Source: Candidatus Competibacter sp.
GTDB lineage: Bacteria; Pseudomonadota; Gammaproteobacteria; Competibacterales; Competibacteraceae
NCBI GenBank assembly: GCA_037045685.1
Contig: JBAOII010000036.1
Coordinates: forward strand, 18,317-82,316
Length of the DNA stretch: 64,000 nt
Direction of reading: 5' to 3'
Made by a program: the position numbers and the translations under genes. The notes beneath the pieces were generated by a model. It was not told the origin of the DNA and did no database searches. It saw nothing but the letters and a program-made list of their open reading frames with translations. This document shows, piece by piece, positions 1 through 17,662 of this stretch. Positions within the stretch are counted from its first letter, which is position 1. Every line of letters begins with the position of its first letter.

Positions 1-1
1 C

Positions 2-760
2 AGCGGTGCGTCGATGCCCGGCACGCCGGTGGACGGGTTGACGATCGGCATCGGTAGCGGCGCGATGAGCGTGGGCGACCGCTTTCTGGTCCAGCCGACC
101 CAGCAGATGGCGAGAACTTTTCAGCTCGCCATCCAAGATCCTCGGGATATCGCCGCCGCCGCGCCGATCAAGACCTTGGCCGGATCGAGCAATACCGGGA
201 CCGCCAAAATTTCGGCGGGCGAGGTGCCGAGCAATCAGAGTCCACCCCCCACGAATCCGCCCTTGCTCGATACGGTCAACATTCAATTTCCCAGCGCCAA
301 CCAATACACCATCAACGGTGGCGCACCCATCGCCTACACCAGCGGCGACAATATCGATTTCAACGGCTGGCGAGTCCAGATCACCGGCACGCCGGCGGCG
401 GGCGACACCTTCCAGGTCGCTTCCAACGCGGGCGGCGTCGGCGACAACCGCAACGCGCTCAAACTGGTCGATTTGCAGAGCAAGCAAACCTTGGTGAACG
501 GCGCCAGCAGCGTCCAGGAGATGCACGGCGAAATGGTCGCCGAGGTCGGCACGCGGGGCAGCAACGCCCGTGCTACCCTGCAAGCGCAAACGGCTTTGCT
601 GGAGCACGCCACCCAGGCGCGCGATGGGGTGTCCGGGGTCAACCTGGATGAGGAAGCGGCCAATCTGATGAAGTATCAGCAATCTTACGAGGCCGCCGCG
701 AAAGTGATCCAGATCGGCGATTCGATCATTCAAACCTTGCTGGACGCGATCAGGAGATAA
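2..760 (+). CDS. flgK: Flagellar hook-associated protein 1 FlgK, C-terminal part (5' end lies outside the window)
   Basis: The frame is open from the window edge. The C-terminus ...VNLDEEAANLMKYQQSYEAAAKVIQIGDSIIQTLLDAI is the conserved FlgK-type terminal helix. flgL follows 3 nt later. Confidence 0.85.
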   Translation, partial: SGASMPGTPVDGLTIGIGSGAMSVGDRFLVQPTQQMARTFQLAIQDPRDIAAAAPIKTLAGSSNTGTAKISAGEVPSNQSPPPTNPPLLDTVNIQFPSANQYTINGGAPIAYTSGDNIDFNGWRVQITGTPAAGDTFQVASNAGGVGDNRNALKLVDLQSKQTLVNGASSVQEMHGEMVAEVGTRGSNARATLQAQTALLEHATQARDGVSGVNLDEEAANLMKYQQSYEAAAKVIQIGDSIIQTLLDAIRR

Positions 761-763
761 ACC

Positions 764-1975
764 ATGCTGCGCATCGCCACTTCCCAGATTTACCAGCAAG
801 GCGCCAAGGCCATCGGCGAGCGGCAGGTGGCGCTGGCCAAGGTGCAGCAGCAGATGGCGACCGGCCAGCGCCTGTTGGCCAACGCCGACGATCCGGTCGG
901 CAGCGCGCGCCTGCTGAGCCTGAGCGAAGAACTCGGCCGGTACGACCAGTACCAGCGGAATATCGATCTGGCGAACGGCCGGCTGAATCTGGAGGACAGC
1001 ACGCTGGGAGACGCCAGCGAATTGCTGCAACGGGCGCGGGAGCTGACCGTTCAAGCCAACAACGCGCCGCTGAACGGCAGCGACCGGCGCGATATCGCCA
1101 AGGAAATCCGTCAGATCCACGATCAGATGTTCAGCGTGGCCAACACCCGCGACGGCAACGGCGAATATCTGTTTTCCGGCTTCCAGAGCCGAACCCAGCC
1201 GTTCGTGCTGGACGCGAACAATCAGGCCGTTTACCAGGGCGACCAAGGCCAACGGCTGGTCAAAGCCGGCCCCGCCCTGGATATTCCGGTCGGCGATTCG
1301 GGCGACGAAGTGTTCCGGGGCGCGCTGAACGGCAACGGCAGTTTCCGGGTGGCGGCGTCTGCGGCCAATACCGGCAACGGGACCATCGCGGTCGGCAGCG
1401 TCACCGATCCGGCCGCGTTCCAGAACCATTCCTACACGATCGCTTTCACGTCGGCGACGACCTTCACCGTCAACGATGATACGGCGGGCGCGGCGGTGCC
1501 TCCGGCGACTTGGAACTACAGCGACGGAGGGATCATCCAGTTCGCCGGCTTGCAGACCGCCATCGACGGCAGCCCGACCACCGGCGACACCTTCACGATT
1601 CAGCCCGCGACCCGGCAGGATTTGTTTGCGACGCTGGATGCGCTGGCGACCGCGCTGGAAACCGGCGGCGGCACGCCGGCGAAAGGGGCGCAACTCAATC
1701 AATCGCTCGCCAACGCCTTGGCCGATCTGGACCAGGGTCTCGATCATCTGACCGGGATGCGCGCCAAGCCCGGTTCGCGGCTGAACGCCCTGCAAGAGCA
1801 GGAGTACACCAACGGCGATTTCACGACGCACCTCCAGCAGACCATCAACGATGTGGGCGGCCTGGACTACGCCGAGGCGGCCACCCGGCTGAGCCAGGAA
1901 ACCTTTGTCCTGCAAGTGGCCCAACAATCGTTTATCCGCATCCAGAGTCTTTCGCTGTTCAATTACATGGGATGA
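764..1975 (+). CDS. flgL: Flagellar hook-associated protein 3 FlgL
   Basis: 403 aa. The N-terminus MLRIATSQIYQQG...QQQMATGQRL and C-terminus ...ATRLSQETFVLQVAQQSFIRIQSLSLFNYM are flagellin-like termini typical of FlgL. It sits directly after flgK. Confidence 0.9.
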   Translation: MLRIATSQIYQQGAKAIGERQVALAKVQQQMATGQRLLANADDPVGSARLLSLSEELGRYDQYQRNIDLANGRLNLEDSTLGDASELLQRARELTVQANNAPLNGSDRRDIAKEIRQIHDQMFSVANTRDGNGEYLFSGFQSRTQPFVLDANNQAVYQGDQGQRLVKAGPALDIPVGDSGDEVFRGALNGNGSFRVAASAANTGNGTIAVGSVTDPAAFQNHSYTIAFTSATTFTVNDDTAGAAVPPATWNYSDGGIIQFAGLQTAIDGSPTTGDTFTIQPATRQDLFATLDALATALETGGGTPAKGAQLNQSLANALADLDQGLDHLTGMRAKPGSRLNALQEQEYTNGDFTTHLQQTINDVGGLDYAEAATRLSQETFVLQVAQQSFIRIQSLSLFNYMG

Positions 1976-2258
1976 GCGACTGTTCCGTTCGCCGCACCCG
2001 ACCATCGCCGGGCGCGGCGCGGCCACAGTTTTTTCCCGAACAGAGCTTCACTGCGTTGCTTTCCTCGCTATTCTCGCTTTAGCTGTTCGCTCTTTATCTC
2101 CCGCTCGCCAAAGACCTCTCGCCTCAAATCGGATCATCGCTCCAGTGTTCCATTTCGGTTGAAGCGTCGGAATTCTGGCAGAATTCCCCGTGAAACAATC
2201 GGAGAAATAGAGCTTGGTAGACTAATAATTTGCTTATTTATTAATATTATATATATAT

Positions 2259-2274
2259 TGGCCTGCAATGTGCT
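2259..2274 (+). promoter_or_regulatory. Candidate sigma-54 (RpoN) promoter upstream of the sugar island
   Basis: TGGCCT-gcaat-GTGCT has correct GG-N10-GC spacing (GG at 2260-2261, GC at 2272-2273). It is preceded by a very AT-rich tract (2220-2258) and lies ~90 nt upstream of the rfbF ATG. Confidence 0.4.
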
Positions 2275-2361
2275 TTTCCGATTGTAGAACGGGCTTGGTT
2301 CGATTCGGCCAACCGTGCCGGAAACCGTATCATCATACCCAACCATCGAAGAGCGACGCGC

Positions 2362-3132
2362 ATGAAAGCCGTTATCCTGGCCGGCGGCCTCGGTACCCGT
2401 CTCAGCGAAGAAACCGTGCTCAAGCCCAAGCCGATGGTAGAAATCGGTGGTCGGCCGATCCTGTGGCACATCATGAAAATTTACTCGGCCCACGGGATCA
2501 ACGAGTTCGTAGTTTGTTGCGGATACAAGGGCTATTTGATCAAAGAGTATTTCGCCAATTACTTCCTGTACATGTCCGATGTGACCTTCGACATGGCGAA
2601 CAACCGGATGGAAGTGCATGTGAAGCACGCCGAGCCTTGGCGAGTCACGCTGGTCGATACTGGCCAAGAGACGATGACCGGTGGTCGCGTGCGCAGGATC
2701 AGGGACTATCTGGACAATCAAACTTTTTGCCTGACTTACGGCGATGGCGTATCCGATGTCGATATCGGAGCGCTGCTCGCTTTTCATCGGCGGCAGGAAA
2801 CTCTGGTCACCGTGAGCGGCGTGCAGCCGAGCGGGCGTTACGGTGTGCTGGAAGTCGAGCAAGAGAGGGTCATGGCGTTCCAGGAAAAACCCACGGGCAA
2901 CGGCATTTGGGTGAGCGGGGGATTTTTCGTCGTCGAACCTCGCGCGCTCGATTACATCGAGAGCGACGCCTCGATTTGGGAGCGCGAGCCGCTCGATCGC
3001 ATCGCGGCGGAAGGTCAATTGGCCATTTTCAAGCACGGCGGATTTTGGGCCGCGATGGATACTTTGCGCGACAAATATCACCTCGAACAGCTTTGGGCGA
3101 ACGGGCGGGCACCATGGAAAGTTTGGGATTGA
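2362..3132 (+). CDS. rfbF: Glucose-1-phosphate cytidylyltransferase (RfbF/DdhA/AscA type)
   Basis: 256 aa. MKAVILAGGLGTRLSEET...KPKPMVEIGGRPILWHIMKIYSAHGINEFVVCCGYKGYLIKEYF is the canonical nucleotidyltransferase G-loop and RfbF family signature. Confidence 0.9.
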   Translation: MKAVILAGGLGTRLSEETVLKPKPMVEIGGRPILWHIMKIYSAHGINEFVVCCGYKGYLIKEYFANYFLYMSDVTFDMANNRMEVHVKHAEPWRVTLVDTGQETMTGGRVRRIRDYLDNQTFCLTYGDGVSDVDIGALLAFHRRQETLVTVSGVQPSGRYGVLEVEQERVMAFQEKPTGNGIWVSGGFFVVEPRALDYIESDASIWEREPLDRIAAEGQLAIFKHGGFWAAMDTLRDKYHLEQLWANGRAPWKVWD

Positions 3133-4247
3133 CGCCGGCGTTTTGGGCGGGGCGGCGAGTCCTGGTCACTGGGCATACCGGCTTCAAGGGCGGCTGGCTG
3201 TGCTTGTGGTTACAACACTTGGGCGCGGAGGTCACCGGCTACGCCCTGGAGCCACCGACTCAACCGAATCTGTTCGAAGCGGCGCGGGTCGGCGAGGGCA
3301 TGCGCTCTGTCTTGGGTGATATCCGTGACTTCGATGCGTTTTGGTCGGCGGTGCGGGAGTATCAGCCCGAGATTATTTTCCACTTGGCCGCACAACCGCT
3401 GGTGTTGCCCGCTTACCGGCAACCGCTCGAGACCTACGCGATCAACGTGCTGGGCACGGTTCATCTGCTGGAGGCGGTGCGACGGACCGCTGGCGTTCGC
3501 GCTGTGGTGAACGTCACCAGCGATAAATGCTACGAAAATCGGGAATGGGTGGCCGGCTATCGAGAAGACGAGCCGATGGGTGGTTACGACCCCTACAGCA
3601 GCAGCAAGGGTTGCGCGGAACTGGTGACAGCCGCCTATCGCCGCTCCTTTTTCAATCGGGCATCGGATCGGGCTGGCGTAGCCTTGGCCTCGGCGCGGGC
3701 CGGCAATGTGATTGGTGGGGGGGATTGGGCGGAAGACCGTTTGATACCCGATGCGATTCGTTCTTTTCGCGCCGGTCGGCCGGTCACGCTCCGCCGCCCG
3801 GACGCCGTTCGACCCTGGCAGCATGTGCTGGAGCCGTTGAGCGGCTATCTGAGGTTGGCGGAACGGCTCTGGCGGGATGGAGCCGCTTATGCCGAAGGCT
3901 GGAACTTCGGGCCGCTAGATGAAGATGCCCACCCGGTCGATTGGCTGGTCGAGAGATTGACGGTGCTGTGGGGCGAAGGGGCGTCTTGGATTCGGGATGA
4001 AACCCCCCATCCGCACGAGGCGCGCTATTTGAAGCTGAATTGCGCCAAAGCGGCGGCCAAGCTGGATTGGCGGCCGCGCTGGTCGCTCGACCGCGCGCTG
4101 GCTGAAACCGTGGCCTGGTATCGCGCCGCTTACGCTAAAGCGGACATGCGAGCGTTTACTCTGGCGCAAATCGCCCGATACCGAGGCGGGGAAGTGCGTG
4201 AAGCCATGCTGGACGCATGCGCCCTCTCTCTCGCCGAGACTCTCTAG
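3114..4247 (+). CDS. rfbG: CDP-glucose 4,6-dehydratase (RfbG/DdhB/AscB type)
   Basis: The internal ATG at 3114 ([29 protein letters not shown]...) gives a Rossmann GxxGxxG, and ...[10 protein letters not shown] is the SDR YxxxK. The 282 codons upstream in ORF 2268..4247 overlap rfbF out of frame and look non-coding. Confidence 0.9.
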
Positions 4248-4264
4248 CTTTGGAATGCGGCCCC

Positions 4265-5593
4265 ATGACCGATCACTGCCCGAGCGAAACGGATTTGCGC
4301 CGCCGGATTTTGGCTTTGGTTGCCGAGTACGCCGAGCGCTTCATGCGACCCGCGCCGTTCGAGAGCGGCGTCACTCCCATTCCGCCATCCGGCAAGGTGA
4401 TCGGTGCGCGAGAACTGGAGTGCATGGTCGAGGCATCGCTGGATGGTTGGCTGACCACCGGTCGTTTCAACGCCGCGTTCGAGCAAAAGCTAGGCGAGTT
4501 TCTCGGGTTGCCCCACGTTCTGACGGTCAACTCTGGCTCGTCCGCGAATTTGGTGGCGGTGTCGGCCCTGTGCTCACCGTTACTCGGCGAACGAGCGTTG
4601 CGGCCGGGCGACGAGGTCATCACGGTCGCGGCGGGTTTTCCGACCACCGTCAATCCTCTGCTGGTCAATCGGTTGACGCCAGTGTTCGCGGATATCGAGA
4701 TCGGTACTTACAACGTCGATGTCGCCCGCCTCGAAGCCGCCATCGGGCCGCGCACCCGCGCGATCGTGCTGGCGCACACGCTGGGCAATCCGTTCGATCT
4801 CGACACCGTGACGCGGCTGGCGCGCGAGCGCGGATTGTGGTTGGTGGAGGATTGTTGCGATGCGCTCGGCTCGACTTGGCGGGGCCAGCGGGTCGGCACT
4901 TTCGGCGATATCGGCACGCTCAGCTTCTATCCGGCCCATCATATCACCATGGGCGAGGGCGGCGCCGTTTTTACCCGCAATCCGCTTTTGGCGCGGGTCA
5001 TGGCTTCTATCCGTGACTGGGGGCGCGATTGCTGGTGCGAGCCTGGCCGCGACAACACCTGCGGTCGTCGCTTCGATTGGCGGCTGGGGGATTTGCCGGC
5101 AGGTTACGATCACAAGTACGTTTACTCGCACTTGGGCTACAACCTGAAAATCACCGATATGCAGGCCGCTTGCGGGTTGGCGCAACTGGAGCGTCTGCCG
5201 GAATTCATCGCGGCGCGCCGGCGCAATTTTCGGTTTTTGCGAGAGCGATTGGCCGAGTTGGGCGAGTTTCTGATCTTGCCCGAGGCCACGTCGGGCAGCG
5301 ATCCTTGCTGGTTTGGGTTCCCCTTGACGCTGCGGGAGGGCGCTGGAGTAGAGCGAGTCGAGCTGCTGCGCTATCTGGAGCAGTGTCGGATCGGTACGCG
5401 ATTGCTGTTCGCCGGCAATCTGTTGCGGCAGCCGTATTTTCGAGACCGGGATTATCGGGTTCAAGACGATCTCGGCAATACCGATCAGGTTATGCGCAAC
5501 ACGTTCTGGATCGGTTTGTATCCTGGCTTGGGTGAGAACGCACTGGGTTATGCGGCGGAAAAAATGGGGCAATTTTTTGGAGTCGGATTTTAG
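4265..5593 (+). CDS. rfbH: CDP-6-deoxy-4-keto-hexose 3-dehydrase (E1, RfbH/DdhC/AscC type), PMP- and [2Fe-2S]-dependent
   Basis: DegT/DnrJ/EryC1 fold. His occupies the Schiff-base Lys position ([14 protein letters not shown]). The cysteine pattern C-X57-C-X1-C-X7-C (DCC...[12 protein letters not shown]) was read directly. Start chosen at MTDHCPSE (4265), after the rfbG stop. Confidence 0.85.
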
Positions 5594-6195
5594 TGGTCGC
5601 TTCTTCGCGGTATACCGAGACCGGAGCCGATCAAGCGCTATTCGAATCGCGGGCTACCTCGATTCCGGGTTGCTTCGAGATTCTGCCGAGAATCCGGCAC
5701 GATGCGCGTGGCCGATTCGTCAAAGTGTTTCATGTCGATTTTTTTGGGGCCAATCGGCTACAGACACGCTATGCGGAGGAGTATTACTCCAAATCGGTGC
5801 GCGGCGTCATTCGCGGCCTACACTTTCAAGCGCCTCCCATGGGCCACGCCAAGCTCGTGTATTGCGTCGAAGGCCGGGTGCAGGATGTCGCGCTCGATTT
5901 GCGAAGAGGCTCCCCGAGCTATGGGAACTACGAGCTGTTTGAATTGAGCGCCGAGGGAGCGAACATGGCATACCTGCCCGAAGGGGTCGCCCACGGTTTT
6001 TGCGTGCTGAGCGATACCGCCACGCTCGTTTACAAGGTTTCGACCGTCTATTCGGCCGAGCACGATGCCGGTCTACTGTGGAGTTCCGCCAATATCCCTT
6101 GGCTGGTGGATGATCCGATCGTGTCGGCGCGGGATCGCGCGCATCCGCCGTTCATCGATTTTGTCAGCCCTTTCGTTTACCGGGACGAGCGATGA
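5593..6195 (+). CDS. Sugar-nucleotide 3,5-/5-epimerase, RmlC-like cupin (AscE-like)
   Basis: 200 aa with a GTG start overlapping the rfbH stop. ...RGRFVKVF...SVRGVIRGLHFQAPPMGHAKLVYCVEGRVQDVALDLRRGSPSYG...LPEGVAHGF is the dTDP-4-dehydrorhamnose 3,5-epimerase family core. Confidence 0.75.
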   Translation: MVASSRYTETGADQALFESRATSIPGCFEILPRIRHDARGRFVKVFHVDFFGANRLQTRYAEEYYSKSVRGVIRGLHFQAPPMGHAKLVYCVEGRVQDVALDLRRGSPSYGNYELFELSAEGANMAYLPEGVAHGFCVLSDTATLVYKVSTVYSAEHDAGLLWSSANIPWLVDDPIVSARDRAHPPFIDFVSPFVYRDER

Positions 6196-7100
6196 AGGTT
6201 TTGGTCACAGGCGCTTCGGGCTTTCTCGGCTCGCGCTTGGTTCGCCGATTGTTGGAGGAAAGACATGAGGTTGCTTGCCTGTCGCGGGCGAGTTCGGCCC
6301 ATAAAAGCGAGTGCTTCGCGCTGCCACGGTGGACGGCGGGAGAGGATGGTTCCGGTTTCCGGGAGGCGCTAGAGGGTTTCCGGCCGGAAGTCGTCGCGCA
6401 TCTGGCGGCGCATTATGTGGCCGAACACGGCTACAAGGATGTCGGCTCTTTGGTGCGCTCAAACGTTTTGTTTGGCGCCTACCTGCTGGATGCCATGCGG
6501 GAGGTCGGCTGCGATGCCTTGGTTTATGCCGGAACTTCGTGGCAACACTATCGGGATCGGGAATACTGTCCGGTCAATCTGTATGCCGCGACCAAGCAAG
6601 CGTTCTCGACTTTGGCCGACTATTATCGCGACGCGGCTGGATTGCGGTTGCTGGAGCTGCATCTCTACGACAGCTACGGCGCGGATGACCCGCGAAAAAA
6701 ATTGATCAATCTGCTCAAGTTTTCCGCCGGGTCCGCCGATAAATTAGCGATGTCGGCGGGCGATCAGCGGCTTCATTTAGTGCATGTCGACGACGTGTCG
6801 CGGGGGGTCGCGCTGGCGTGCCAGCGAGTCCTGGAGTGGGCACCGGGCGAAAGGAATATTTATCGGTTGCCTTCGCAAAAAGCGGTCAGCTTGAGAGAGC
6901 TTATCGCGGCATTTAATGCGGTTAACCCTAAATGTCCGGTAAAGGTCATTTGGGGTAAGCGGGATTATCGGGAGCGAGAAGTTTTTCAACCATGGGAAAA
7001 AGCGAACATTTTACCTGGGTGGCAGCCGGCGATACCCCTTTTAGAAGGCCTGAAGATGGTTTGCCGAGATTCGGTAGAATTTGAGGTGGGTATAAAGTAA
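6192..7100 (+). CDS. NAD(P)-dependent sugar epimerase/reductase (SDR; AscF/RfbJ/RfbS-like 4-ketoreductase candidate)
   Basis: 302 aa. MKVLVTGASGFLGSRLV is a Rossmann motif and NLYAATK is a YxxxK catalytic motif. The start overlaps the upstream stop by 4 nt. Confidence 0.75.
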   Translation: MKVLVTGASGFLGSRLVRRLLEERHEVACLSRASSAHKSECFALPRWTAGEDGSGFREALEGFRPEVVAHLAAHYVAEHGYKDVGSLVRSNVLFGAYLLDAMREVGCDALVYAGTSWQHYRDREYCPVNLYAATKQAFSTLADYYRDAAGLRLLELHLYDSYGADDPRKKLINLLKFSAGSADKLAMSAGDQRLHLVHVDDVSRGVALACQRVLEWAPGERNIYRLPSQKAVSLRELIAAFNAVNPKCPVKVIWGKRDYREREVFQPWEKANILPGWQPAIPLLEGLKMVCRDSVEFEVGIK

Positions 7101-7105
7101 GTATT

Positions 7106-7849
7106 ATGGATAAGAAATATATAAATAATAATAACCTCGTGTATGACCTTGGCATGCATAATGGCGATGATACCGATTATTATTTACACAAAGGATATCG
7201 GGTAATCGCAGTAGATCCAAATCCTGATTTTATAAAAAAAGCGTTGATTAGATTTCATGAATTTATTGAAAAAGGGCAACTTGTATTAATAGAAAGCGCA
7301 ATTTGGGAGTCAGAGAGTACACGAGTATTTTATATAAGTCCAAATTTTCCACATCTGGCGAGTCTCCATAAAAATTGGGCAGCACGTGAAGATGTTAATT
7401 TAACTGAAATCGAAGTATGCTGTTTGCCAATAGAGCATTTATTTGCACTTTATGGGGTGCCGATGTATTTAAAAATAGATATAGAAGGGTCTGATGAATT
7501 AGTTCTCGATCAATTGGCAATGCTCCGCTATCTGCCGTGTTATTTGAGTGTAGAAGACTGCCGTTTTGGGTTCCGTTACCTGGAAAAATTGATGGCCTTA
7601 GGCTATAGCAGCTTTAAGCTCGTAAACCAAAAACATATCGCTGATTCGATCGATACGACCATCGGTTATCGGTTTTCGGCGCATGCTTCTGGGCCGATGA
7701 GCGAAGATGCTCCCGGGTCGTGGATTCCGGCCTGCGACATTGTCCAACACTATTCGGAGACCGTGCGCACGGTCGGCGGGCAGCGCCTGTCTCCGTTCGA
7801 TACATGGTGGGATATCCATTGCCGGGGTCCGGCGGAGTTCCGTATCTGA
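7106..7849 (+). CDS. FkbM-family methyltransferase
   Basis: 247 aa. LVYDLGMHNGDDTDYYL...YRVIAVDPNPDF...LKIDIEGSDELVLDQL matches the FkbM pattern (xDxGAxxG ... lKiDvEGaE). The 5' half is conspicuously AT-rich. Confidence 0.7.
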   Translation: MDKKYINNNNLVYDLGMHNGDDTDYYLHKGYRVIAVDPNPDFIKKALIRFHEFIEKGQLVLIESAIWESESTRVFYISPNFPHLASLHKNWAAREDVNLTEIEVCCLPIEHLFALYGVPMYLKIDIEGSDELVLDQLAMLRYLPCYLSVEDCRFGFRYLEKLMALGYSSFKLVNQKHIADSIDTTIGYRFSAHASGPMSEDAPGSWIPACDIVQHYSETVRTVGGQRLSPFDTWWDIHCRGPAEFRI

Positions 7850-7864
7850 AAGGGGTCTGCGGTT

Positions 7865-8917
7865 ATGAAAGCAAAAGTCAAACCACGTATCAATTTGGAT
7901 AATCGGGTACCGCTCCAAACAGTGATTCCGCTGTCCACGCCCTTCGTGCTGTTTGTAGACCCAGTCAATACTTGTAATTTTCAATGCAAATTTTGCCCTA
8001 CCGGCGACCGTGATTTAATTAAAAAAACTGGCCGCTGGCAAGGAAGAATAAATTTTGATTTATATAGAACAATCATTGATGGTTTAGAAGAGTTCGAGCA
8101 ACCACTTAAAGTGCTTCGTCTTTATAAAGAAGGTGAGCCTTTGTTGCATACTCGATTTGCTGACATGGTCAGTTACGCTAAAAAAAGCGGTTATGTCGAA
8201 TATGTTGATACGACCACAAATGGGTATTTGCTCACTCCTGAAAAAGTTGGGCCTCTCCTCGATGCAGGTATTGATCGAATCAATATTTCCGTCGATGGAA
8301 TGTCCGATGAACAATATTGGGATTTTGCTCATGTCCGAGTTGACTTTGATCGCTTTGTGAATAATATCCGCTATCTTTACCAACATAAAGGCGATTGTGA
8401 AATTTGCGTCAAAATACCAGGCGATATTCTTTCATCTGAAGACAAAGCGCGTTTTTTTGAAACCTTTGGTGAAATTTCGGATCGGGTGTTCATCGAAAAT
8501 ATAGCTCCCTGCTGGCCAGCGTTTAACGTAGAGGAGTATATGGATATCCAAATTAGCGAAGGTATCTACGGTCAGCCTATTGGCGAGGTCCAGTCCTGTC
8601 CTTATATCTTTTATTCTATTGCCGTGAACACTGATGGTACGGTCAGTCTCTGTTTTTTGGATTGGGAGCGCACGTTAATTATCGGAGATACCAAAACGCA
8701 AACTATCAAGGAAATCTGGGAAAGCCAAACGTTGCGCGAACATCAAGTGGCCCATCTGCAAGGTCGGCGTAAACATAACGCAACGTGTGCGGAATGCGGG
8801 CAACTATCCCATTGTTTGCCGGATAATATCGATGCGTACACCGGGCAGATAATGGAGCGTATGGCCGGGCGGCCAGGAAGCCATGAGCGGCGGGTTGCCC
8901 GATTGGAGCGCGTATGA
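7865..8917 (+). CDS. Radical SAM enzyme with SPASM/twitch-type C-terminal cysteine cluster
   Basis: 350 aa. CNFQCKFC is a CX3CX2C motif. C-terminally, SCPYIFYSIAVNTDGTVSLC is C-X12-G-X4-C and CAECGQLSHC is CX2CX5C. AT-richer than the flanks. Confidence 0.8.
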   Translation: MKAKVKPRINLDNRVPLQTVIPLSTPFVLFVDPVNTCNFQCKFCPTGDRDLIKKTGRWQGRINFDLYRTIIDGLEEFEQPLKVLRLYKEGEPLLHTRFADMVSYAKKSGYVEYVDTTTNGYLLTPEKVGPLLDAGIDRINISVDGMSDEQYWDFAHVRVDFDRFVNNIRYLYQHKGDCEICVKIPGDILSSEDKARFFETFGEISDRVFIENIAPCWPAFNVEEYMDIQISEGIYGQPIGEVQSCPYIFYSIAVNTDGTVSLCFLDWERTLIIGDTKTQTIKEIWESQTLREHQVAHLQGRRKHNATCAECGQLSHCLPDNIDAYTGQIMERMAGRPGSHERRVARLERV

Positions 8918-10575
8918 AAAATGAAAGAATTTTGTTTGTGATTCCTCCCTACTTTAGCGCTGACGACTATATAACCAGCGACCGGTCCAGGGTATTGCCG
9001 CCGTTTACTGTTCCTTATGGGGTTCTTTCGCTCGATGCCTATTTGAAGCGGCAGTGCGGGGATCAGGTTAGTTGTTATATTGTTGATTTAAATATTACGC
9101 TAAAAAATATTGTTGACTCCGTTGAGAAACAGGATTGCTTTACCGCGTTTAGCGCTTCGTTAACCGCAGCGATCCATGATTTCGAGCCATCCATGATTGG
9201 GATATCAGCGCTATTTAATATCTCGTTCCAATATATTGAAGAGATCGCCAAAACTGCAAAACAAGCGGATGACCGGCTTTTAATCCTGACGGGCGGTGGT
9301 TTGCCTTCGGCCGCCTACCAGCAAGTCCTGCGTCTTTGCCCGTCGGTAGATGCGGTGTGCAAGGGTGAGGGCGAGCTGCCGCTGGCCGATCTGGTGATGG
9401 CCGACGATAGGGCGGCCCTGCTCGAATCGCATCCCTCGTGGATTACCCGTATCGGGCTATCCTCCAACAAAAAACCCGAACCCCGGTTTATAAAAAATCT
9501 CGATGAGATTCCGATGTTGAACTATGAAATGATCGATCTCGACAATTATAATTCAAGATCGCTCGATAAAAGGTATTCGGGAATCAAAAAAAGAGAGATG
9601 GCGATTCACACCTCGCGCGGCTGTCCATTTTCATGTGTGTTTTGCTCGAACCCATTCTTGCATGGAAAAAAAATGCGCGCCATGAGCGTGGAGCGCGTCA
9701 TCGATGAAGTGAGGGTTATGAAGGAGCAGCATGGGCTAACGGTTTTACTGATCGAGGATGATCATTTTTTGTTCGATACCCAGCGTGCGAAGAAAATCCT
9801 GCACGGATTATCTGAACTGAACATTCGAATCGAATTTCCCAATGGGATCGCAGTTTACGCGATCGATGAAGAGCTGGCGGCTTTGCTCTACCAAGCTGGC
9901 GTGTCCACGGTCGCGCTCGCCATCGAGTCCGGCTCGGATTATGTTTTGAATAAAATTATCAAAAAGCCGCTGAAAACAAATATCGTCAAAAGCAAAGTTG
10001 AAATGCTCAGAAAGCAGGGCGTTTTGAGCCACGCTTTCATCGTGGTTGGCCTGCCGGGAGAACAGGCGTCCCATCGGCGGCAGACCCTTGAGCTATTGCT
10101 CGATATCGGTGTTGATTGGGCGCACGTTTTTTGTGCCGTGCCGATATTCGGCAGCAGACTTCACGAGATTTGCGTCGAAAACGGTTATATTGAGAACAGC
10201 AATTTTCTGGATCACATCAATACCAAATCGGTGATCAAGGCGCCTGGCGTCGATCCGCAGGAGATCGAGAAAACTGCCTATCAGATCAATTTGCTAGTCA
10301 ATTTTGTGCATAATTTCAACTTGAAAACGGGCAATTACCAAACGGCGATCCAATATTTTTCCAACGTGGCCGAAAAATATCCGCAACACGCTTTCGCCCA
10401 TCATGCTCTGGCGCGAGCGTACGCCGGCGCGGGAAGGTCGCACGATGCCGATGCGTCCCGAGACCGATTTGAGCGCATCCTCCTCCACGACCCGTGGTGG
10501 CGGGCTCAAGCGGAGGCGTTCGGGTTGATCGGGGACGCTACGCGCATTGGCCGCGAGAGCCCGATCGTCGCGTGA
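8914..10575 (+). CDS. B12-binding-domain radical SAM protein (class B methyltransferase-like) with TPR-like C-terminal tail
   Basis: 553 aa. It has an N-terminal B12-binding-like domain, a CPFSCVFC (CX3CX2C) motif, and a C-terminal helical repeat ...YQTAIQYFSNVAEKYPQHAFAHHALARAYAGAG. The start overlaps the upstream stop by 4 nt. Confidence 0.8.
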   Translation: MKNERILFVIPPYFSADDYITSDRSRVLPPFTVPYGVLSLDAYLKRQCGDQVSCYIVDLNITLKNIVDSVEKQDCFTAFSASLTAAIHDFEPSMIGISALFNISFQYIEEIAKTAKQADDRLLILTGGGLPSAAYQQVLRLCPSVDAVCKGEGELPLADLVMADDRAALLESHPSWITRIGLSSNKKPEPRFIKNLDEIPMLNYEMIDLDNYNSRSLDKRYSGIKKREMAIHTSRGCPFSCVFCSNPFLHGKKMRAMSVERVIDEVRVMKEQHGLTVLLIEDDHFLFDTQRAKKILHGLSELNIRIEFPNGIAVYAIDEELAALLYQAGVSTVALAIESGSDYVLNKIIKKPLKTNIVKSKVEMLRKQGVLSHAFIVVGLPGEQASHRRQTLELLLDIGVDWAHVFCAVPIFGSRLHEICVENGYIENSNFLDHINTKSVIKAPGVDPQEIEKTAYQINLLVNFVHNFNLKTGNYQTAIQYFSNVAEKYPQHAFAHHALARAYAGAGRSHDADASRDRFERILLHDPWWRAQAEAFGLIGDATRIGRESPIVA

Positions 10576-10615
10576 GCGTCGACACCTCTCGGGCGCTGGC
10601 GTTGGCGCGAGGGCG

Positions 10616-11929
10616 ATGCCCGTGATCGGGTTGCTGCACGTCACGGCGCATCTGGGCGGCGGCGTCGGTAAGGTGCTTTCGCGCCTGGTGGAGGAATCCG
10701 GCCGCCGGAACGATGGCTTGCGACACGCGATCATTTGTCTGGAGCGGCCGGAAAAAGACCAGTTCGCCGAGCGCGTTCGGGCTTGTGGCGCCGAGCTGCT
10801 GATCGGCCCGTCTCGGGAGGAGTTAAACCGGCGGATCGCCGAAGCCGACATCGTGCAGCTGGAATGGTGGCACCATCCGCGCGTGGCCGAATGGCTTTGC
10901 TCCGGCGTTTTGCCGCCCATGCGCCTGATCGTGTGGAGCCACGTATCGGGCTTGCATCCGCCCGAAATCCCCGCCGGGTTTTTGACCCTTCCCCACCGCT
11001 TCCTGTTCAGCTCTCCCTGCTCTTGGGAGCATCGGTCGGTGATCGGCTTGAGCCCGAGCCAGCGCTCGAAAGTGGATTCGGTCTTCAGCTCGGGCGGCTT
11101 CGAGGATTTGCCGGAGCCGCCACCGCGCTCGGCGCGCGGCCCTTTGCGGGTCGGCTATGTGGGCACGCTCAATTTCGCCAAATTGCATCCGCGGCTGCTC
11201 GACTTTCTCGGCGCCGTTTCGCTGCCGGGGTTTCGGTTGACGCTGGTCGGCGACCCCACCACCGGCGCCGAGCTGCGCGCTCGGGTTGCCGGCCAAAGCC
11301 TCGCGGTCCAACTGGAGTTTCGCGGCTACCGGACCGATGTGGCCGCCGAGCTAGCCCGGCTCGATGTCTTGGCGTATCTGCTCAACCCCCTGCACTATGG
11401 GACGACCGAGAACGCGCTGCTGGAGGCCATGGCGATGGGGGTGGTGCCGGTCGTGCTGGACAACCCTGCGGAGAGATGTTTGGTCCGGCACGGCGAAACC
11501 GGCCTGGTGGTCGGCGATCCCGCCGCGTTTGCGGAGGCTTTGGCGTACTTGGCCGATCACCCGGCCGAGCGCCGCAGACTGTCCGCTCGCGCCAGCCGAG
11601 AAACGCGTTTCCGCTTCTCGATCGAGCGCACGGCGGATGGCCTCGAAGCGCATTACCGCGCCGTGCTGGCGGAAGACAAGCGCGCTTTCGATTTGCGGCC
11701 GGTATTCGGGCCGACGCCGGCCGACTGGTTCCGAGCCTGCCAGGGAGACCAAGCGTGGCGCTTTGCCGATGGCGGGAGCGCGACGCGGGGGCCGGCGGTC
11801 GAAAAAGCCGGGCGTGGACCGCATTATTTGTACGAAAAAACCAAAAGCTCGGCGTTCCACTATCGCGATACGTTTCCGGACGATCCGAGATTGCGGCGTT
11901 GGGCCGAGCGGCTGGAGGCGGGCCGGTGA
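10616..11929 (+). CDS. Glycosyltransferase, GT-B fold (family 1/4-like)
   Basis: Start taken at MPVIGLLHVTAHLGGGVGKV (10616). ...GTTENALLEAMAMGVVPVVLDNP...GETGLVV is the EX7E-type GT1 C-terminal signature. Confidence 0.75.
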   Translation: MPVIGLLHVTAHLGGGVGKVLSRLVEESGRRNDGLRHAIICLERPEKDQFAERVRACGAELLIGPSREELNRRIAEADIVQLEWWHHPRVAEWLCSGVLPPMRLIVWSHVSGLHPPEIPAGFLTLPHRFLFSSPCSWEHRSVIGLSPSQRSKVDSVFSSGGFEDLPEPPPRSARGPLRVGYVGTLNFAKLHPRLLDFLGAVSLPGFRLTLVGDPTTGAELRARVAGQSLAVQLEFRGYRTDVAAELARLDVLAYLLNPLHYGTTENALLEAMAMGVVPVVLDNPAERCLVRHGETGLVVGDPAAFAEALAYLADHPAERRRLSARASRETRFRFSIERTADGLEAHYRAVLAEDKRAFDLRPVFGPTPADWFRACQGDQAWRFADGGSATRGPAVEKAGRGPHYLYEKTKSSAFHYRDTFPDDPRLRRWAERLEAGR

Positions 11930-13110
11930 AACGCTTTGCTCTGCCTGACAGGCGGGTTGCGCGCCGGTTGTTCCAGCGGCTGGCGGAGCGCCCCCCGGCG
12001 GTCGAGCCATGCCGGACCGATAAGCCCTTGGTTCTTTATGGCGCCGGCAATCTCGGCGCTCTGGCGGCGGATATGCTGGGGCGGCTGGCGTTGCCGGTGG
12101 CCTACGCGATGGATCGGGCGCCATCGGGCGACCGGCTGTTGGCGGGGCGTATCCCGGTGCTGGAGCCAAGACAGCCCTCTCCGGAAGAGCGGGGCGGTCA
12201 CACGGTCGCCGTCTGCGTGGTCAACGCGCCCTACCGGCCGATCCGCGACGCGCTCGCCGAAATGGGCTGGGGGCATATTTGCCCGGTTTACGACCTCTTG
12301 GAAGCCTATGCCGACCGGATGCCCATCAAGAATGGCTGGTTTGCGGGCCCCTTGAGCGAGCGAGATGTGGCGGGCATCGAAGCGGTGCTTGCCCGCTGGG
12401 AAGATGACCGTTCCCGCGCCGCTCACTTGCAGTTCCTGGCTTGGCGGCTCCACCGCCGAGAGTGGTGTTTCGCCGATGCGCCGGTGCGCATCGACGATCG
12501 GTATTTCATCGGGCCGATCCGCGAGGCCTTGCGGCCCGACGAGTGTTTCTTGGACGGCGGGGCCCATCGCGGAGCGGTGATCGAGCGATGGCTCGAAACG
12601 GCCGGAGGCGCGTTTCGGGCGGTCTTGGCCGTGGAGCCGGACCGAGAAAACGCGCGATGCCTGCGCGAGCGCATCGCCAGGTTGCCGGCCGGCGTGGCCC
12701 GACGCATCCGGGTGATGGAGTGCGCCCTGGCCGCGCGCGGCGGGAGCCAACCGTTTCGCCACGGTTTTGACTTGGCCTCGCGCCTGGAGCCGGGGGCTGC
12801 CGATAGCGTCGCGGCCCATCGGTTGGACGATCTGGATTTCCCGGTTTCGTTCGGCAAAATCCATCTGGAAGGGGGTGAGCGGGCGGCGCTCGAAGGGGGG
12901 ATGGAAACCTTGCGGCGTTTTCGCCCCCTGCTGGCGGTCACGCTTTATCACGACCGGGACGGCCTGTGGCGAACCGCCGCGCTGTTGATGGAGCTGTTGC
13001 CGGACTACCGGTTTTTGTTGCGCCTGCACGCATGGTGTGGGACCGGGGTGGTCTTGTACGCGATCCCCGCTGAAAGATGGGTGGGTTCTTCCGCCGCCGG
13101 AAATCGCTGA
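11926..13110 (+). CDS. FkbM-family methyltransferase (second copy, GC-rich)
   Basis: The GTG at 11926 overlaps the GT1 stop (GTGA). ...FLDGGAHRGAVIERW...AVEPDREN...GKIHLEGGERAALEG is the FkbM pattern. The upstream part of the 791-aa ORF 10735..13110 is an off-frame overlap with the GT1 gene. Confidence 0.7.
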   Translation: MKRFALPDRRVARRLFQRLAERPPAVEPCRTDKPLVLYGAGNLGALAADMLGRLALPVAYAMDRAPSGDRLLAGRIPVLEPRQPSPEERGGHTVAVCVVNAPYRPIRDALAEMGWGHICPVYDLLEAYADRMPIKNGWFAGPLSERDVAGIEAVLARWEDDRSRAAHLQFLAWRLHRREWCFADAPVRIDDRYFIGPIREALRPDECFLDGGAHRGAVIERWLETAGGAFRAVLAVEPDRENARCLRERIARLPAGVARRIRVMECALAARGGSQPFRHGFDLASRLEPGAADSVAAHRLDDLDFPVSFGKIHLEGGERAALEGGMETLRRFRPLLAVTLYHDRDGLWRTAALLMELLPDYRFLLRLHAWCGTGVVLYAIPAERWVGSSAAGNR

Positions 13111-13176
13111 GCTGGCGAGTGGCGGAAAATGTAGAGCGCGACCTCTGAAAACCGAGAAAGAAGGAATGATCAGGAA

Positions 13177-16100
13177 ATGAGCGAACCGTATGGATCGAAT
13201 GATCAATGCGAGGTTGATGTCATCATTCCCGCATACAATTATGGTCGCTATTTAGATGGCTGCCTGACTTCCGTTTTAGAGCAAACCTTCGGTGGCTACT
13301 CTGTTCTCGTTATCGATAACGCTTCGGAAGACGATACCGAGGAGGTCGCGAGGCGGTGGGTCCGTTCGGATTCCCGTTTTAGCTATATCAGGAATGAAAC
13401 CAATATCGGTTTGCGGGATAGCTCCCTGAAGGCTTACGCGCATACCCGGGCCAAATGGGTTTTGTTTCTCTCGGCGGACGATCTGTTAAAGCCCCGCTTT
13501 CTGGAAATGGCGGTGAGCGCTCTCCGGCGTCACCCGGAATGCACGTTCGCGTATAGCGCTTGGCGCATGCTCGTCGATAATCCGGGTGGCTTGCGCCACG
13601 GGGAAGAAATAGACGTGCAGATCCCCCATGATCGGAGCGGTTGCTACGATGAGTCCGGGCTTTTGCTGTCTCATAACTGGATCACCAACTCGTTTACCCT
13701 GTTCCGTCGCGAAGCTTGCGAGTCGGCAGGCGGTTTCATGCCGGCCGGTTTCAGCCATTTCGGCGATTGGTATTTATGGATGCGCCTTTCCGCGAAAGGG
13801 CCGGCATTTTACATTAACGAGCATTTGGGGCTATACCGGAGCCACGGCCGGTCCGAGTCGGATCGCTTGATCGCCAACCACCAATCCGGCTTCGACCATA
13901 TCTACTTTCACGACAAAATTTTTGAGTCCGATCTCTGGCCTTGGCCGGTGAGGCTGTTGGCTAAGGCCAACCAAATTCGTTGGCTGACGGGAGAACCGCT
14001 CACCCAAATCGCCCGTAAAATGGGTGGAGCAGCGGCGGAGCCCAGGGTGCGCGGCTTCGTGGATCGGCATCGAAGCAGGTTTTGGACCGAGGTGGCGCGG
14101 TCCGTTCTCCATTACAAGAATTCGATAATCCCAAATTTTCTGGACACGCCGGAGAATGGGCTCGCCTTGCTGCGAGAAGCTTTGCAGCATGATCCCCATA
14201 ATGCGGAAGCCGCCGCTTTGCTCGAGCATCACCGAGAAGGCCGTGGCGACTATCGGGAGTGGTCGCTGGGCCATCGCTGGGATGCCGAGCGGTGCCGCCG
14301 GTTATTGGCCGGCACCGATGCGCCCGAAACCATTGTCGATATCCATGTCTTGGTGGTGGATCGCGGGGATCGGAACCTGCTCGCCGATACGATCGACGAT
14401 CTCGCCGCTCAGGCGTTAGCGAATTGGCGACTCACGGTGGTTTCCGAAACGGCCCGTCCCGAGTCGGCCGAGCCCATCGAGATGATCGAGTGGGCGCAGG
14501 TGTCGGGCCAATCGGCCGCCGAGGCGATAGCCGCTTCGGTCGTCGCGAGTGCCGCGCGCTGGTTTGTTTGCTTTCCGGCCGGCGTGCGCTTGTCGCCAGC
14601 ATTTACTCTGCTCGCGGGGTTGCGGTTGCGCGAGCGCCCCGATTCCTTGCTGTTGTATCTGGACGAAGATGCTGTAGACGCTGATGGAGAACACGCGTTC
14701 CCGAGATTCAAGCCCGACGTTAACGTCGATTTTCTTCGTTCGTATCCCTATGTCGGCGCCGCGACCCTGATCTCTAGGTCCGTGATGCTCGATCCGAGAA
14801 TCGCGATTTTGCCGGTCGGGTTACCGCGCAATTACGGAGCGGCGCTGCTGGCTATCGAGCGAACTCCGAGCGCGGTGGAACATCTGGATGAGGTTTTGGT
14901 GCATGTCCCGGAGCCGCTGGCCGCCGAGTTCCAAAGTACCGAGCTCGCGAGATTGCTGGTCGAGCAGCACTTGGCGAGGTGCGGAATTGCCGCCGAGGTT
15001 TCCGATGGATCGCTGGCCGGTTCTTTGGTCGTCGAATATCTGCTGCCGGCGCAACCGCCGATGGTCAGCGTTCTGATATTGGTTCGAGACAATATCGAGC
15101 ATGTCCAGCTTTGCCTGGAAGCTTTGCTGGAGAAAACCCGTTATCCGAGTTTCGAGGTGTTGGCCGTTGTCGGCCCGGATACGCCACAGCCGGTGCTCGC
15201 TTATTTGGCCGAGCTGGCCGGCGGCGATGCCCGCGTGCGACCGTTGCGCCACGAGGAAACGCGCGATGGCGCCGCGATTCGCCACCTTCAGGCTGATCGA
15301 GCGGTTGGCGAATACTTGGTGCTGCTGGATGACGATGTCGCCGCGTTGCAGGATAACTGGCTTGCCCGTTTGGTGGCCATGGGGTTGCGTCCGGAGGTCG
15401 GAGCCGTTGGCTGCCGGTTGCTGGCCCTCGATCGACGGGTGCGCCATGCTGGGATGATTCTCGGCATTGGCGGTGCGATTGATCGCATAGGGGCTGGGTT
15501 GACGCTGACCGAGAGCGGGTATATGGGCCGCGTTCAATTGGCCCAAAATTTTTCGGCCGTGAGCGCCGCTTGCATGCTGGTGCGAAAAAGCCTGTTTCTT
15601 GAGGTGGGGGGCTTTGCTGAAGCGGGTGTCAGCGCCTTTTCCCGCGATGGCGATTTGTGCCTCAAAATCGGAGACCGGGGTTTTCTGATCGTTTGGACTC
15701 CGCACGTTACGATGGTTTGCCACGGAAGCCGAGATGAATGGGGCGAATCCGATCCCGATCCCGATAAACGCCATCAATCCGCTCGGCGGGCGTTTGTCAA
15801 AAAATGGCTTCACCGCTTGGGCAACGATCCCGCCTATAATCGCCACTTAAGCCTGCGACAACGAGAATGGATGATCGACGGTGATTTTGACGTGCCTTGG
15901 CATCCCGGCTTGGAGCCCTTGCCGCGAATTGTCGCTCAACCACCCGATGAAATGGGCGTCGGACAATACCGGATGATCGGTCCGCTCAAGGAACTGACCG
16001 ACAGCGGTCGGATTTGCAGCTTTCTCTTGCCGGCGTTGACCAGCGACAAACGCTTCCTGCCGTATGTATCCGAATTGATCAGGGCAAAACCCACGGTCTT

Positions 16101-16920
16101 CTTCCTGCAAAATGCTTTTTCGGACTTCCATCTGGACGACTTGCAACAATATGCGGATTTGCTTCCTGATCTCTTCCGGGTCTTCGGCCAGGACGACATC
16201 GTGTTTTCCGTTCCGCAGAAAAGCGCGGCGCGCAAACACTTCGGCAAGGACACCAAGGCCCGGGTGCGCAAAGCCGTTTCGCTCTGCCATCGGGCCATCG
16301 TGACCACCGAACCCATCGCCGAAGCGATGCGCGGCATGCTGGACGACATCCGGGTGATGCCGAATTACTTGGAGCGCTTCCGCTGGGGCGACCTGCAAGC
16401 GCCAAGGAACGAACGACGCAAGCCACGAGTCGGTTGGGCCGGCGCACAACAGCATCAGGGCGATCTGGAATTCATCCTGCCGGTGGTCGAGGCGACCGCC
16501 AACGAGGTGGACTGGATTTTCATGGGGATGTATCCGCCCAAACTCCGATATCACGTTGCCGAAACGCATCCGGCGGTCGCGTTCGACCAATACCCGGCCG
16601 CGCTGGCAAAGCTCGATCTCGACCTCGCGATCGCGCCGCTCGAACTCAACCGTTTCAATGCCGCCAAAAGCAACCTGCGCCTGCTGGAATACGGCGCGGT
16701 CGGTTACCCGGTCATCGCCACCGACATTTTGCCGTACCGGAACGCCCCGGTGACCCGCGTTCCCAACAACCCGCAAGCGTGGGTCAAGGCGATTCGCGAG
16801 CACATCTACGAATTGGAGGCCACTCGGGCGGCGGGCGAACGATTGCGTCAGTGGGTGTTATCCGACTGGATGCTGGATCAGCATCTCGATGAATGGCTGC
16901 GGGTGTTGCTGCCGGATTGA
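13177..16920 (+). CDS. Large multidomain glycosyltransferase (two GT2-like domains plus a C-terminal GT-B-like domain)
   Basis: 1247 aa. The first GT2-like domain is DVIIPAYNYGRYLDGCLTSVLEQTF...VLVIDNASEDDT and the second is VSVLILVRDNIEHVQLCLEALL...LLDDD. The C-terminus ...PRVGWAGAQQHQGDL...LLEYGAVGYPVIATD is GT-B-like. Its position just upstream of fliC resembles the large flagellin glycosyltransferases of Pseudomonas islands. Confidence 0.8.
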   Translation: MSEPYGSNDQCEVDVIIPAYNYGRYLDGCLTSVLEQTFGGYSVLVIDNASEDDTEEVARRWVRSDSRFSYIRNETNIGLRDSSLKAYAHTRAKWVLFLSADDLLKPRFLEMAVSALRRHPECTFAYSAWRMLVDNPGGLRHGEEIDVQIPHDRSGCYDESGLLLSHNWITNSFTLFRREACESAGGFMPAGFSHFGDWYLWMRLSAKGPAFYINEHLGLYRSHGRSESDRLIANHQSGFDHIYFHDKIFESDLWPWPVRLLAKANQIRWLTGEPLTQIARKMGGAAAEPRVRGFVDRHRSRFWTEVARSVLHYKNSIIPNFLDTPENGLALLREALQHDPHNAEAAALLEHHREGRGDYREWSLGHRWDAERCRRLLAGTDAPETIVDIHVLVVDRGDRNLLADTIDDLAAQALANWRLTVVSETARPESAEPIEMIEWAQVSGQSAAEAIAASVVASAARWFVCFPAGVRLSPAFTLLAGLRLRERPDSLLLYLDEDAVDADGEHAFPRFKPDVNVDFLRSYPYVGAATLISRSVMLDPRIAILPVGLPRNYGAALLAIERTPSAVEHLDEVLVHVPEPLAAEFQSTELARLLVEQHLARCGIAAEVSDGSLAGSLVVEYLLPAQPPMVSVLILVRDNIEHVQLCLEALLEKTRYPSFEVLAVVGPDTPQPVLAYLAELAGGDARVRPLRHEETRDGAAIRHLQADRAVGEYLVLLDDDVAALQDNWLARLVAMGLRPEVGAVGCRLLALDRRVRHAGMILGIGGAIDRIGAGLTLTESGYMGRVQLAQNFSAVSAACMLVRKSLFLEVGGFAEAGVSAFSRDGDLCLKIGDRGFLIVWTPHVTMVCHGSRDEWGESDPDPDKRHQSARRAFVKKWLHRLGNDPAYNRHLSLRQREWMIDGDFDVPWHPGLEPLPRIVAQPPDEMGVGQYRMIGPLKELTDSGRICSFLLPALTSDKRFLPYVSELIRAKPTVFFLQNAFSDFHLDDLQQYADLLPDLFRVFGQDDIVFSVPQKSAARKHFGKDTKARVRKAVSLCHRAIVTTEPIAEAMRGMLDDIRVMPNYLERFRWGDLQAPRNERRKPRVGWAGAQQHQGDLEFILPVVEATANEVDWIFMGMYPPKLRYHVAETHPAVAFDQYPAALAKLDLDLAIAPLELNRFNAAKSNLRLLEYGAVGYPVIATDILPYRNAPVTRVPNNPQAWVKAIREHIYELEATRAAGERLRQWVLSDWMLDQHLDEWLRVLLPD

Positions 16921-17640: not shown

Positions 17641-17662
17641 CGAGATTTTTTCGACCGACCCC

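Follow-up and report, generated by a model that had tools for sequence, protein, structure and literature searches.

A CDP-3,6-dideoxyhexose gene set between flgL and fliC of Candidatus Competibacter as the probable front end of a flagellin O-glycosylation island

The window, a 64-kb stretch of DNA from Candidatus Competibacter sp. (contig JBAOII010000036.1), carries between the flagellar genes flgL and fliC an array of twelve + strand genes (2362–17640), and the first five of these (2362–7100) have the family signatures of a pathway to a cytidine diphosphate (CDP)-linked 3,6-dideoxyhexose. All five are found where an initial annotation of the window had placed them, and the enzymes it had named, a cytidylyltransferase, a 4,6-dehydratase, an E1-type 3-dehydrase, an RmlC-like epimerase and a short-chain dehydrogenase/reductase (SDR), are recovered by family searches and by their motifs. 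The first gene, rfbF/ddhA/ascA (2362–3132; + strand, as are all window features located below), encodes a glucose-1-phosphate cytidylyltransferase that matches the equivalog model TIGR02623 at 450 bits (cut-off 300). It is followed by rfbG/ddhB/ascB (3114–4247), a CDP-glucose 4,6-dehydratase with 504 bits on the equivalog model TIGR02622 (cut-off 278); the YxxxK motif is present and the length of 377 aa is also given by metagenome gene calls. Next in order is rfbH/ddhC/ascC (4265–5593), an E1-type CDP-4-keto-6-deoxyglucose 3-dehydrase with 715 bits on NF011936 (cut-off 423). The set is completed by an RmlC-family (cupin) sugar-nucleotide epimerase (5593–6195; PF00908, 178 bits) and an extended SDR, presumed to be a 4-ketoreductase (6192–7100; PF01370), with GxxGxxG at residue 7 and YxxxK at residue 131. 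The identical RfbH sequence is present in 93 blocks of the metagenome collection, with the same gene order in all five contigs shown, and NCBI annotates identical proteins in a metagenome-assembled genome of Candidatus Competibacter sp. By these matches the sugar enzymes are classed as ordinary members of the Ddh/Asc family.

Residues 7–442 of RfbH align without gaps to the E1 enzyme of Yersinia pseudotuberculosis (PDB 3BCX; E = 6e-201). In this alignment His225 (codon 4937–4939) stands opposite His in the wild-type chain 3BCX and opposite Lys in the mutant chain 3BB8 (FYPAKH), and is therefore the residue that replaces the Schiff-base Lys of the aminotransferases. The initial annotation had read the replacement of the pyridoxal phosphate-binding Lys from a 13-residue stretch, which is identical in the wild-type chain. 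It had likewise reported the spacing C-X57-C-X1-C-X7-C of the [2Fe-2S] ligands, and this is reproduced exactly by Cys198, Cys256, Cys258 and Cys266 (codons 4856–4858, 5030–5032, 5036–5038 and 5060–5062). Thus, in the alignment to a known E1 that it had proposed as a check, the His and Cys motifs do fall on E1 catalytic positions. The catalytic His and all four Cys are kept in 19 of 19 related RfbH copies examined, at identities of 43–85%. Related loci and proteins are cited below by L and P numbers. In many relatives RfbH is called at ~535 aa with an N-terminal extension of ~95 aa (L003:9763–11605, L004, L093:7613–9425; P0009–P0018), which is not present in the window copy. Some of these extensions match the PemK toxin family, and an open reading frame (ORF) of 71–84 aa lies just before the gene. 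The extended forms could reflect a toxin–antitoxin-like insertion between rfbG and rfbH, or could be a gene-calling artefact.

The epimerase retains the catalytic His77 (RGLHFQ) and Tyr147 (YK) of RmlC and scores 152.6 bits on the rmlC equivalog TIGR01221, just under the cut-off of 155.75. Among solved structures it is closest to WbcA from Yersinia enterocolitica O:8 (PDB 5BUV; 141 bits, gapless over 162 residues), a CDP-6-deoxy-D-xylo-4-hexulose 3-epimerase acting on a CDP-linked 4-keto sugar. WbcA differs in belonging to a pathway without E1, and in having Cys where the window epimerase and RmlC-type enzymes have the catalytic Tyr. Solved relatives of the SDR are weak (at most 59 bits), and all 120 homologs among the matches listed bear generic names; its gene comes after that of the epimerase in every related locus. 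Both proteins are ~30% identical to those of an asc-like cluster in Ideonella (L021), ordered E3, RfbF, RfbG, RfbH, epimerase and SDR, and therefore form a separate lineage. Since C5 is the sole epimerisable centre after 3-deoxygenation, the product would be an L-series 3,6-dideoxyhexose. It would be either ascarylose or its C4 epimer, two sugars that sequence cannot separate. The label 'ascarylose-type' in the initial annotation has the presence of the RmlC-like epimerase and the SDR behind it and nothing else, the names of the homologs being generic; it is a reasonable guess, not a result.

Seven further genes follow the five in the array, among them those of two radical S-adenosylmethionine (radical-SAM) enzymes, and the gaps between neighbours throughout the twelve range from −19 to +66 bp. 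The flgL–fliC slot described in the initial annotation is confirmed, with FlgL upstream (764–1975) and FliC downstream (17782–19245), and the glycosyltransferases it had placed next to fliC are encoded at 10616–11929 and 13177–16920. The upstream border gene encodes the hook–filament junction protein FlgL (Pfam Flagellin_N, flgK_1st_1; the identical protein is named FlgL by NCBI), preceded, by sequence reading, by the C-terminus of FlgK. Between flgL and rfbF lies a gap of 386 bp whose downstream part (2150–2361) includes a very AT-rich stretch (TAATAATTTGCTTATTTATTAATATTATATATATATT) directly before a sigma-54-like motif, and which could be a regulatory region or an insertion scar. The motif itself (TGGC-N8-TGCT, 2259–2274) is a hint only, with 12 matches in the window versus 6.1 expected by chance. 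Scans of positions 1–20000 for sigma-70 promoters and terminators gave fewer matches than shuffled sequence and are uninformative.

Downstream of the SDR gene the array continues with a first FkbM-family methyltransferase (7106–7849; PF05050, TIGR01444), a radical-SAM enzyme with a SPASM domain (7865–8917; PF04055, PF13186) and a radical-SAM enzyme with a B12-binding domain and C-terminal tetratricopeptide repeats (TPR) (8914–10575; PF02310, PF04055, TPR_19). These are followed by a GT4 (GT-B) glycosyltransferase (10616–11929; PF13692, PF00534), a second FkbM-family methyltransferase (11926–13110; PF05050) and a soluble glycosyltransferase of 1247 aa (13177–16920) that contains two GT2 domains and, at its C-terminus, a weak match to GT-B. 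The last gene of the array encodes a stand-alone TPR protein of 221 aa (16975–17640; TPR_1, TPR_2) and lies between the gene of the large glycosyltransferase and fliC. From the end of the array to fliC there are 141 bp, and an exact sigma-28-type promoter (TAAA-N15-GCCGATA, 17663–17688), the sole match in the window, lies 94 nt before the fliC start. The flagellin, which is the presumed acceptor, has Flagellin_N, Flagellin_IN and Flagellin_C domains and a central domain with 28% Ser+Thr. FliD was found downstream of fliC by family search; FlgL, FliC and FliD are the only flagellar proteins so confirmed. ORFs at 19317–19841 and 22080–22514 lie where FlaG and FliS would sit, were used as queries and are placed by position only; a FleQ-like ORF (23660–25252) is recognised by sequence reading only.

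Clear transmembrane segments are absent from all twelve island proteins, and between positions 1 and 22000 of the window none of the ORFs of 250 aa or more has four or more predicted ones. Likewise, no Wzx, Wzy, Wzm/Wzt, ABC transporter or initiating transferase was found in the island and its 20-kb surroundings. A search of solved structures with both glycosyltransferases returned generic GT2 and GT4 relatives only. In relatives of the large glycosyltransferase the GT2 domains occur as fusions with TPR repeats, and in L091 and L092 its homologs are encoded immediately upstream of flagellin. Known flagellin glycosyltransferases contain TPR domains, and by analogy the stand-alone TPR protein is a candidate adaptor that binds flagellin. 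The same slot between large glycosyltransferase and fliC is occupied in L091 (16312–16980) by a TPR protein of 75% identity, and this arrangement is seen in two Competibacteraceae genomes. Protein P0126 was considered as a fusion of the large glycosyltransferase and the TPR protein and was rejected, its TPR region being N-terminal and only weakly similar; P0143 is a genuine GT2–TPR protein, but a different one.

The radical-SAM genes of the array coincide with a low-GC block. Between 7100 and 10400 the GC content is 33–54% (300-base windows) versus ~63% for the genome, and the block spans the first FkbM gene, the SPASM gene and most of the gene of the B12-type enzyme, with its right breakpoint within the 3′ (TPR) end of the latter. 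The SPASM enzyme is 72–75% identical to the copies of Nitrogeniibacter mangrovi and Methylotuvimicrobium buryatense, but only ~30% identical to that of the closest relatives by RfbH, SDR and GT4, which have a different radical-SAM block in place of 7100–10400. This segment looks like a recent cassette swap. An apparent disruption of the SPASM gene in L088 and L089 was rejected: their DNA is 3–4 substitutions from the window and the frame is open, and the discrepancy is therefore a gene-calling difference.

Among solved structures the B12-type enzyme finds weak relatives, AprD4 (6FD2, 80 bits) as the best and also TokK, and its best family match, to a P-methyltransferase family, is far below the cut-off. 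The weak solved relatives of the SPASM enzyme are BtrN, MoaA and cytosylglucuronate decarboxylase. Several of the solved relatives of the two enzymes act on sugars, and AprD4 is a radical-SAM diol dehydratase responsible for the C3′-deoxygenation of a sugar. A C-terminal TPR is carried by the B12-type enzyme of the window (8914–10575) and also by that of N. mangrovi (L092:5770–7458). Within a flagellin island, an enzyme of this makeup could act on the protein-bound glycan or on flagellin itself.

Modules of similar makeup occur in other genomes, several of them beside flagellar genes. In the betaproteobacterium N. mangrovi (CP048836.1, L092) the order is RfbG, RfbH, epimerase, SDR, FkbM, radical-SAM, B12-type radical-SAM, radical-SAM, GT4, large glycosyltransferase, GT2, flagellin, FlaG, FliD, FliS and FliT. 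A second Competibacteraceae genome, metagenome-assembled (GCA_016710535.1, L091), has radical-SAM enzymes, GT4, large glycosyltransferase, TPR protein, flagellin and FliD, and one metagenome locus (L108) has RfbG, RfbH, epimerase, SDR, four radical-SAM enzymes, GT4, large glycosyltransferase, FliC, FlaG and FliD. FliC is also carried by L104 and L124, and FlgK–FlgL by L127 and L138. Scanning metagenomes with seven aligned GT4 proteins gave 66 loci, 24 of them of at least 15 kb, and FliC, FliD or FlgK–FlgL is present in the flanks of 6 of these 24. The GT4 gene is the most conserved of the module, with 55–67% identity across beta- and gamma-proteobacterial loci. Directly upstream of it, in nearly all related loci, lies a SPASM radical-SAM gene (1–4 copies), and FkbM and the RmlC-like epimerase accompany it. 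One further locus (L001:3075–13018) has an RfbH of 85% identity followed by a NeuB/cupin fusion, a thiamine-diphosphate enzyme (YerE-like, as in yersiniose branching), a methyltransferase, radical-SAM enzymes, GT2 and a B12-type radical-SAM/TPR enzyme, which suggests a branched-chain-sugar variant of the same module family.

The explanation favoured here, with moderate confidence, is that the five sugar genes open a flagellin O-glycosylation island of twelve genes at 2362–17640 of this Candidatus Competibacter stretch. RfbF would form CDP-glucose and RfbG would yield CDP-4-keto-6-deoxy-D-glucose. RfbH, with a pyridoxamine phosphate cofactor and its [2Fe-2S] cluster, would then remove the 3-OH to give CDP-4-keto-3,6-dideoxyhexose, its electrons coming either from a reductase encoded elsewhere or from general ferredoxin/flavodoxin reductases, as with SpnQ. 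Epimerisation at C5 by the RmlC-like enzyme and reduction at C4 by the SDR would give the CDP-3,6-dideoxy-L-hexose (ascarylose or its C4 epimer). Further tailoring, of the sugar or of the glycan, is the probable role of the FkbM methyltransferases and of the two radical-SAM enzymes. The soluble GT4 and 1247-aa glycosyltransferases would carry out transfer to flagellin Ser/Thr in the cytoplasm, before export, with the TPR protein as a possible guide.

The observations that weigh against this reading concern the E1 step, the acceptor and the name under which RfbH is filed. The initial annotation had seen in the five genes the AscA-B-C-E-F logic of the Yersinia CDP-ascarylose route. This stands for AscA, AscB and AscC, whose equivalogs score well above their cut-offs, but no homolog of the E3 reductase (AscD/DdhD) was found by tblastn in the 64-kb window (best E = 0.09, with DdhD of Yersinia aleksiciae from locus L033 as query) or in any related module locus. 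In the Yersinia pathway E1 needs E3 as the electron feeder to its cluster (PMC8987622). In addition, RfbH is missing from loci L104–L107, L123 and L152, which do have RfbF, RfbG, epimerase, the SPASM enzyme, FkbM and GT4; the 3-deoxy step is therefore optional within a broader CDP-6-deoxyhexose module, and these variants are presumably 6-deoxyhexose rather than 3,6-dideoxyhexose versions. Locus L122 groups with these variants, and L104 ends at a flagellin gene.

On one alternative reading, the E1 homolog would do no reductive 3-deoxygenation without E3 and the island would make a different sugar, e.g. a 6-deoxyhexose on which the radical-SAM enzymes perform the deoxygenation or rearrangement instead. 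The radical-SAM enzymes are co-conserved throughout the module, RfbH-less variants included, and the best solved relative of the B12-type enzyme is AprD4, a sugar C3′ deoxygenase. However, the His and the four Cys are kept in all module RfbH, which argues for a working, redox-active E1. E3 lies within 10 kb in only 19 of 84 RfbH loci of any kind, and a distant or generic reductase is therefore the norm. SpnQ, an E1 homolog, works without a dedicated E3, through general ferredoxin or flavodoxin reductases, and wild-type E1 is without aminotransferase side activity (PMC8987622). Because of the locus count, the SpnQ precedent and the retained His and Cys, the missing E3 weakens the Asc-type logic without being fatal to it, and an island without reductive 3-deoxygenation is rather unlikely. 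SpnQ resembles the window enzyme in being of E1 type, with His for Lys, a [2Fe-2S] cluster and no dedicated E3 in its own cluster (PMC8987622). It differs in being a TDP-4-keto-2,6-dideoxyglucose 3-dehydrase, acting on a thymidine diphosphate (TDP)-linked 2-deoxy substrate in the actinomycete spinosyn pathway, and RfbH of the window is closely orthologous to the Yersinia E1, which is CDP-specific, rather than to SpnQ.

The acceptor could also be something other than, or besides, flagellin, such as an S-layer protein, a pilin or the targets of general O-glycosylation, with the flagellar site being one of several insertions. Of the 24 metagenome module loci that reach 15 kb, 18 have flanks without a flagellar gene. 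The copy of M. buryatense 5GB1C (L093, CP035467.1, 3953848–3974741), ordered RfbF, RfbG, RfbH, epimerase, SDR, GT2, radical-SAM, SPASM radical-SAM, two methyltransferases, PhyH and GT4, is flanked by transposases, has no flagellar genes within 10 kb and lacks a large glycosyltransferase; this module may serve another acceptor. The window copy is itself a mosaic containing a low-GC block, and the module is therefore mobile. The count of loci without flagellar genes is, however, to be read with flanks that were limited to 10 kb, with many contigs that end early and with large glycosyltransferase genes of 3.7–8 kb between GT4 and fliC. In 25% of the loci filament genes lie within 10 kb, a frequency that looks far above what one would estimate for an unrelated gene, and the array of the window stops 141 bp before fliC. 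A different or additional acceptor is considered unlikely.

It is improbable that the genes form a pathway for a sugar of lipopolysaccharide (LPS) O-antigen or capsule that is merely beside flagellar genes, or whose CDP-sugar is shared with LPS. Several points favour such a pathway: 3,6-dideoxyhexoses are classically O-antigen sugars, the nearest characterised homologs are O-antigen enzymes of Yersinia and Salmonella, NCBI names RfbH 'lipopolysaccharide biosynthesis protein RfbH', related RfbF-RfbG-RfbH-epimerase-SDR cassettes lie away from flagellar genes in L003 and L093, and among species-representative genomes the nearest 80 RfbH loci all lack a flagellar setting (0 of 80 with flagellar genes within 10 kb). 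Against it, the island and its 20-kb surroundings offer none of the export or initiating proteins listed above and no polytopic protein, the soluble glycosyltransferases and the TPR protein are packed tightly up to fliC, and linkage to flagellin genes recurs in several distant lineages. Polytopic ORFs (at least six predicted transmembrane segments) are present in 2 of 35 module loci versus 50 of 70 (71%) ordinary RfbH genome loci. The count of 0 in 80 also disposes of a flagellar position as a general trait of RfbH, and the NCBI label is probably misleading at a flgL–fliC locus. The comparative evidence, which is drawn from gene content and position, favours flagellin over LPS as the target, the side on which the initial annotation had also come down.

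The flagellin island can be placed in a wider, tentative reading, in which a widespread and mobile beta-/gamma-proteobacterial cassette builds an undescribed, radical-SAM-tailored 3,6-dideoxy-L-hexose on flagellin, with an E1 that operates without the canonical E3. The cassette would comprise the CDP-hexose genes with or without E1, the RmlC-like epimerase, the SDR, the SPASM and B12-type radical-SAM enzymes, FkbM and GT4. C-methylation or rearrangement are possible examples of the tailoring that this joint reading supposes.

The asc cluster of Y. pseudotuberculosis and the Salmonella–Yersinia ddhDABC (rfbIFGH) genes share with the window the first three enzymes and the same His and Cys motifs of E1, and in the asc cluster an RmlC-family epimerase and an SDR follow, as AscE and AscF. 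The window differs from both in being without AscD/DdhD, in its flagellar context without O-antigen processing genes, and in the added radical-SAM and FkbM genes. In Pseudomonas, flagellin glycosylation islands are well known in the flgL–fliC/fliD stretch and, in P. syringae, fgt1 and fgt2 are upstream of fliC (PMC3927599). The islands of P. aeruginosa PAK and of P. syringae (viosamine) share with the window the slot and the large soluble glycosyltransferases upstream of fliC, and the flagellar cluster of the window is Pseudomonas-like in layout, including the FleQ-like ORF (by sequence reading). The glycans there are derived from dTDP-rhamnose and viosamine, whereas the window has a CDP-3,6-dideoxyhexose pathway and radical-SAM tailoring genes.

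Dideoxyhexose genes have been assigned to flagellin islands before. A genomic prediction of 2026 placed RfbF/G/H/S (paratose) or 3,6-dideoxyhexose pathways in flagellin islands of three Clostridium species (C. butyricum, C. sporogenes and C. thermosuccinogenes), that of the last lying between flgL and fliD, and named glycosyltransferase plus TPR as a signature of flagellin glycosyltransferases (PMC13317340). De Maayer and Cowan described CDP-4-keto-6-deoxyglucose genes in four enterobacterial strains, as flagellin island type 23 (PMC4875605). The Clostridium islands are like the window in having RfbF/G/H in a flagellin island together with TPR-glycosyltransferases, and there too the sugar is a prediction only (PMC13317340). 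They differ in RfbS, a paratose synthase of the D-series, where the window has the RmlC-like epimerase and a distinct SDR that imply the L-series; the hosts of the window module are Gram-negative beta- and gamma-proteobacteria, and its core of SPASM and B12-type radical-SAM enzymes, FkbM and GT4 is conserved. The initial annotation had proposed a flagellin glycan chemistry not yet characterised. At the level of genomic prediction this had already been put forward (PMC13317340), whereas the literature on flagellin with dideoxyhexose sugars, rfbH or ddhC was found to hold predictions only, with no chemical demonstration on flagellin. In the best-ranked literature on radical SAM or B12 no mention of 'flagellin glycosylation' was found. 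The conserved partnership with radical-SAM enzymes looks undescribed, and that partnership, in a module without E3, is the part that a specialist would not expect.

Candidatus Competibacter accumulates glycogen and is abundant in wastewater plants. The glycans of flagellin influence motility and the assembly of the filament, recognition by phages and by the immune system, and surface properties; those characterised so far are nonulosonic acids, rhamnose/viosamine chains and a few others. The window adds a Gram-negative version to the prediction of 3,6-dideoxyhexoses on flagellin. The conserved module, with its two kinds of radical-SAM enzyme and no E3, points to unexplored sugar chemistry and raises the question of how its E1 is reduced. 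Two cultured carriers, N. mangrovi with the module beside its flagellin gene and M. buryatense 5GB1C with a variant elsewhere in the genome, make this question testable.

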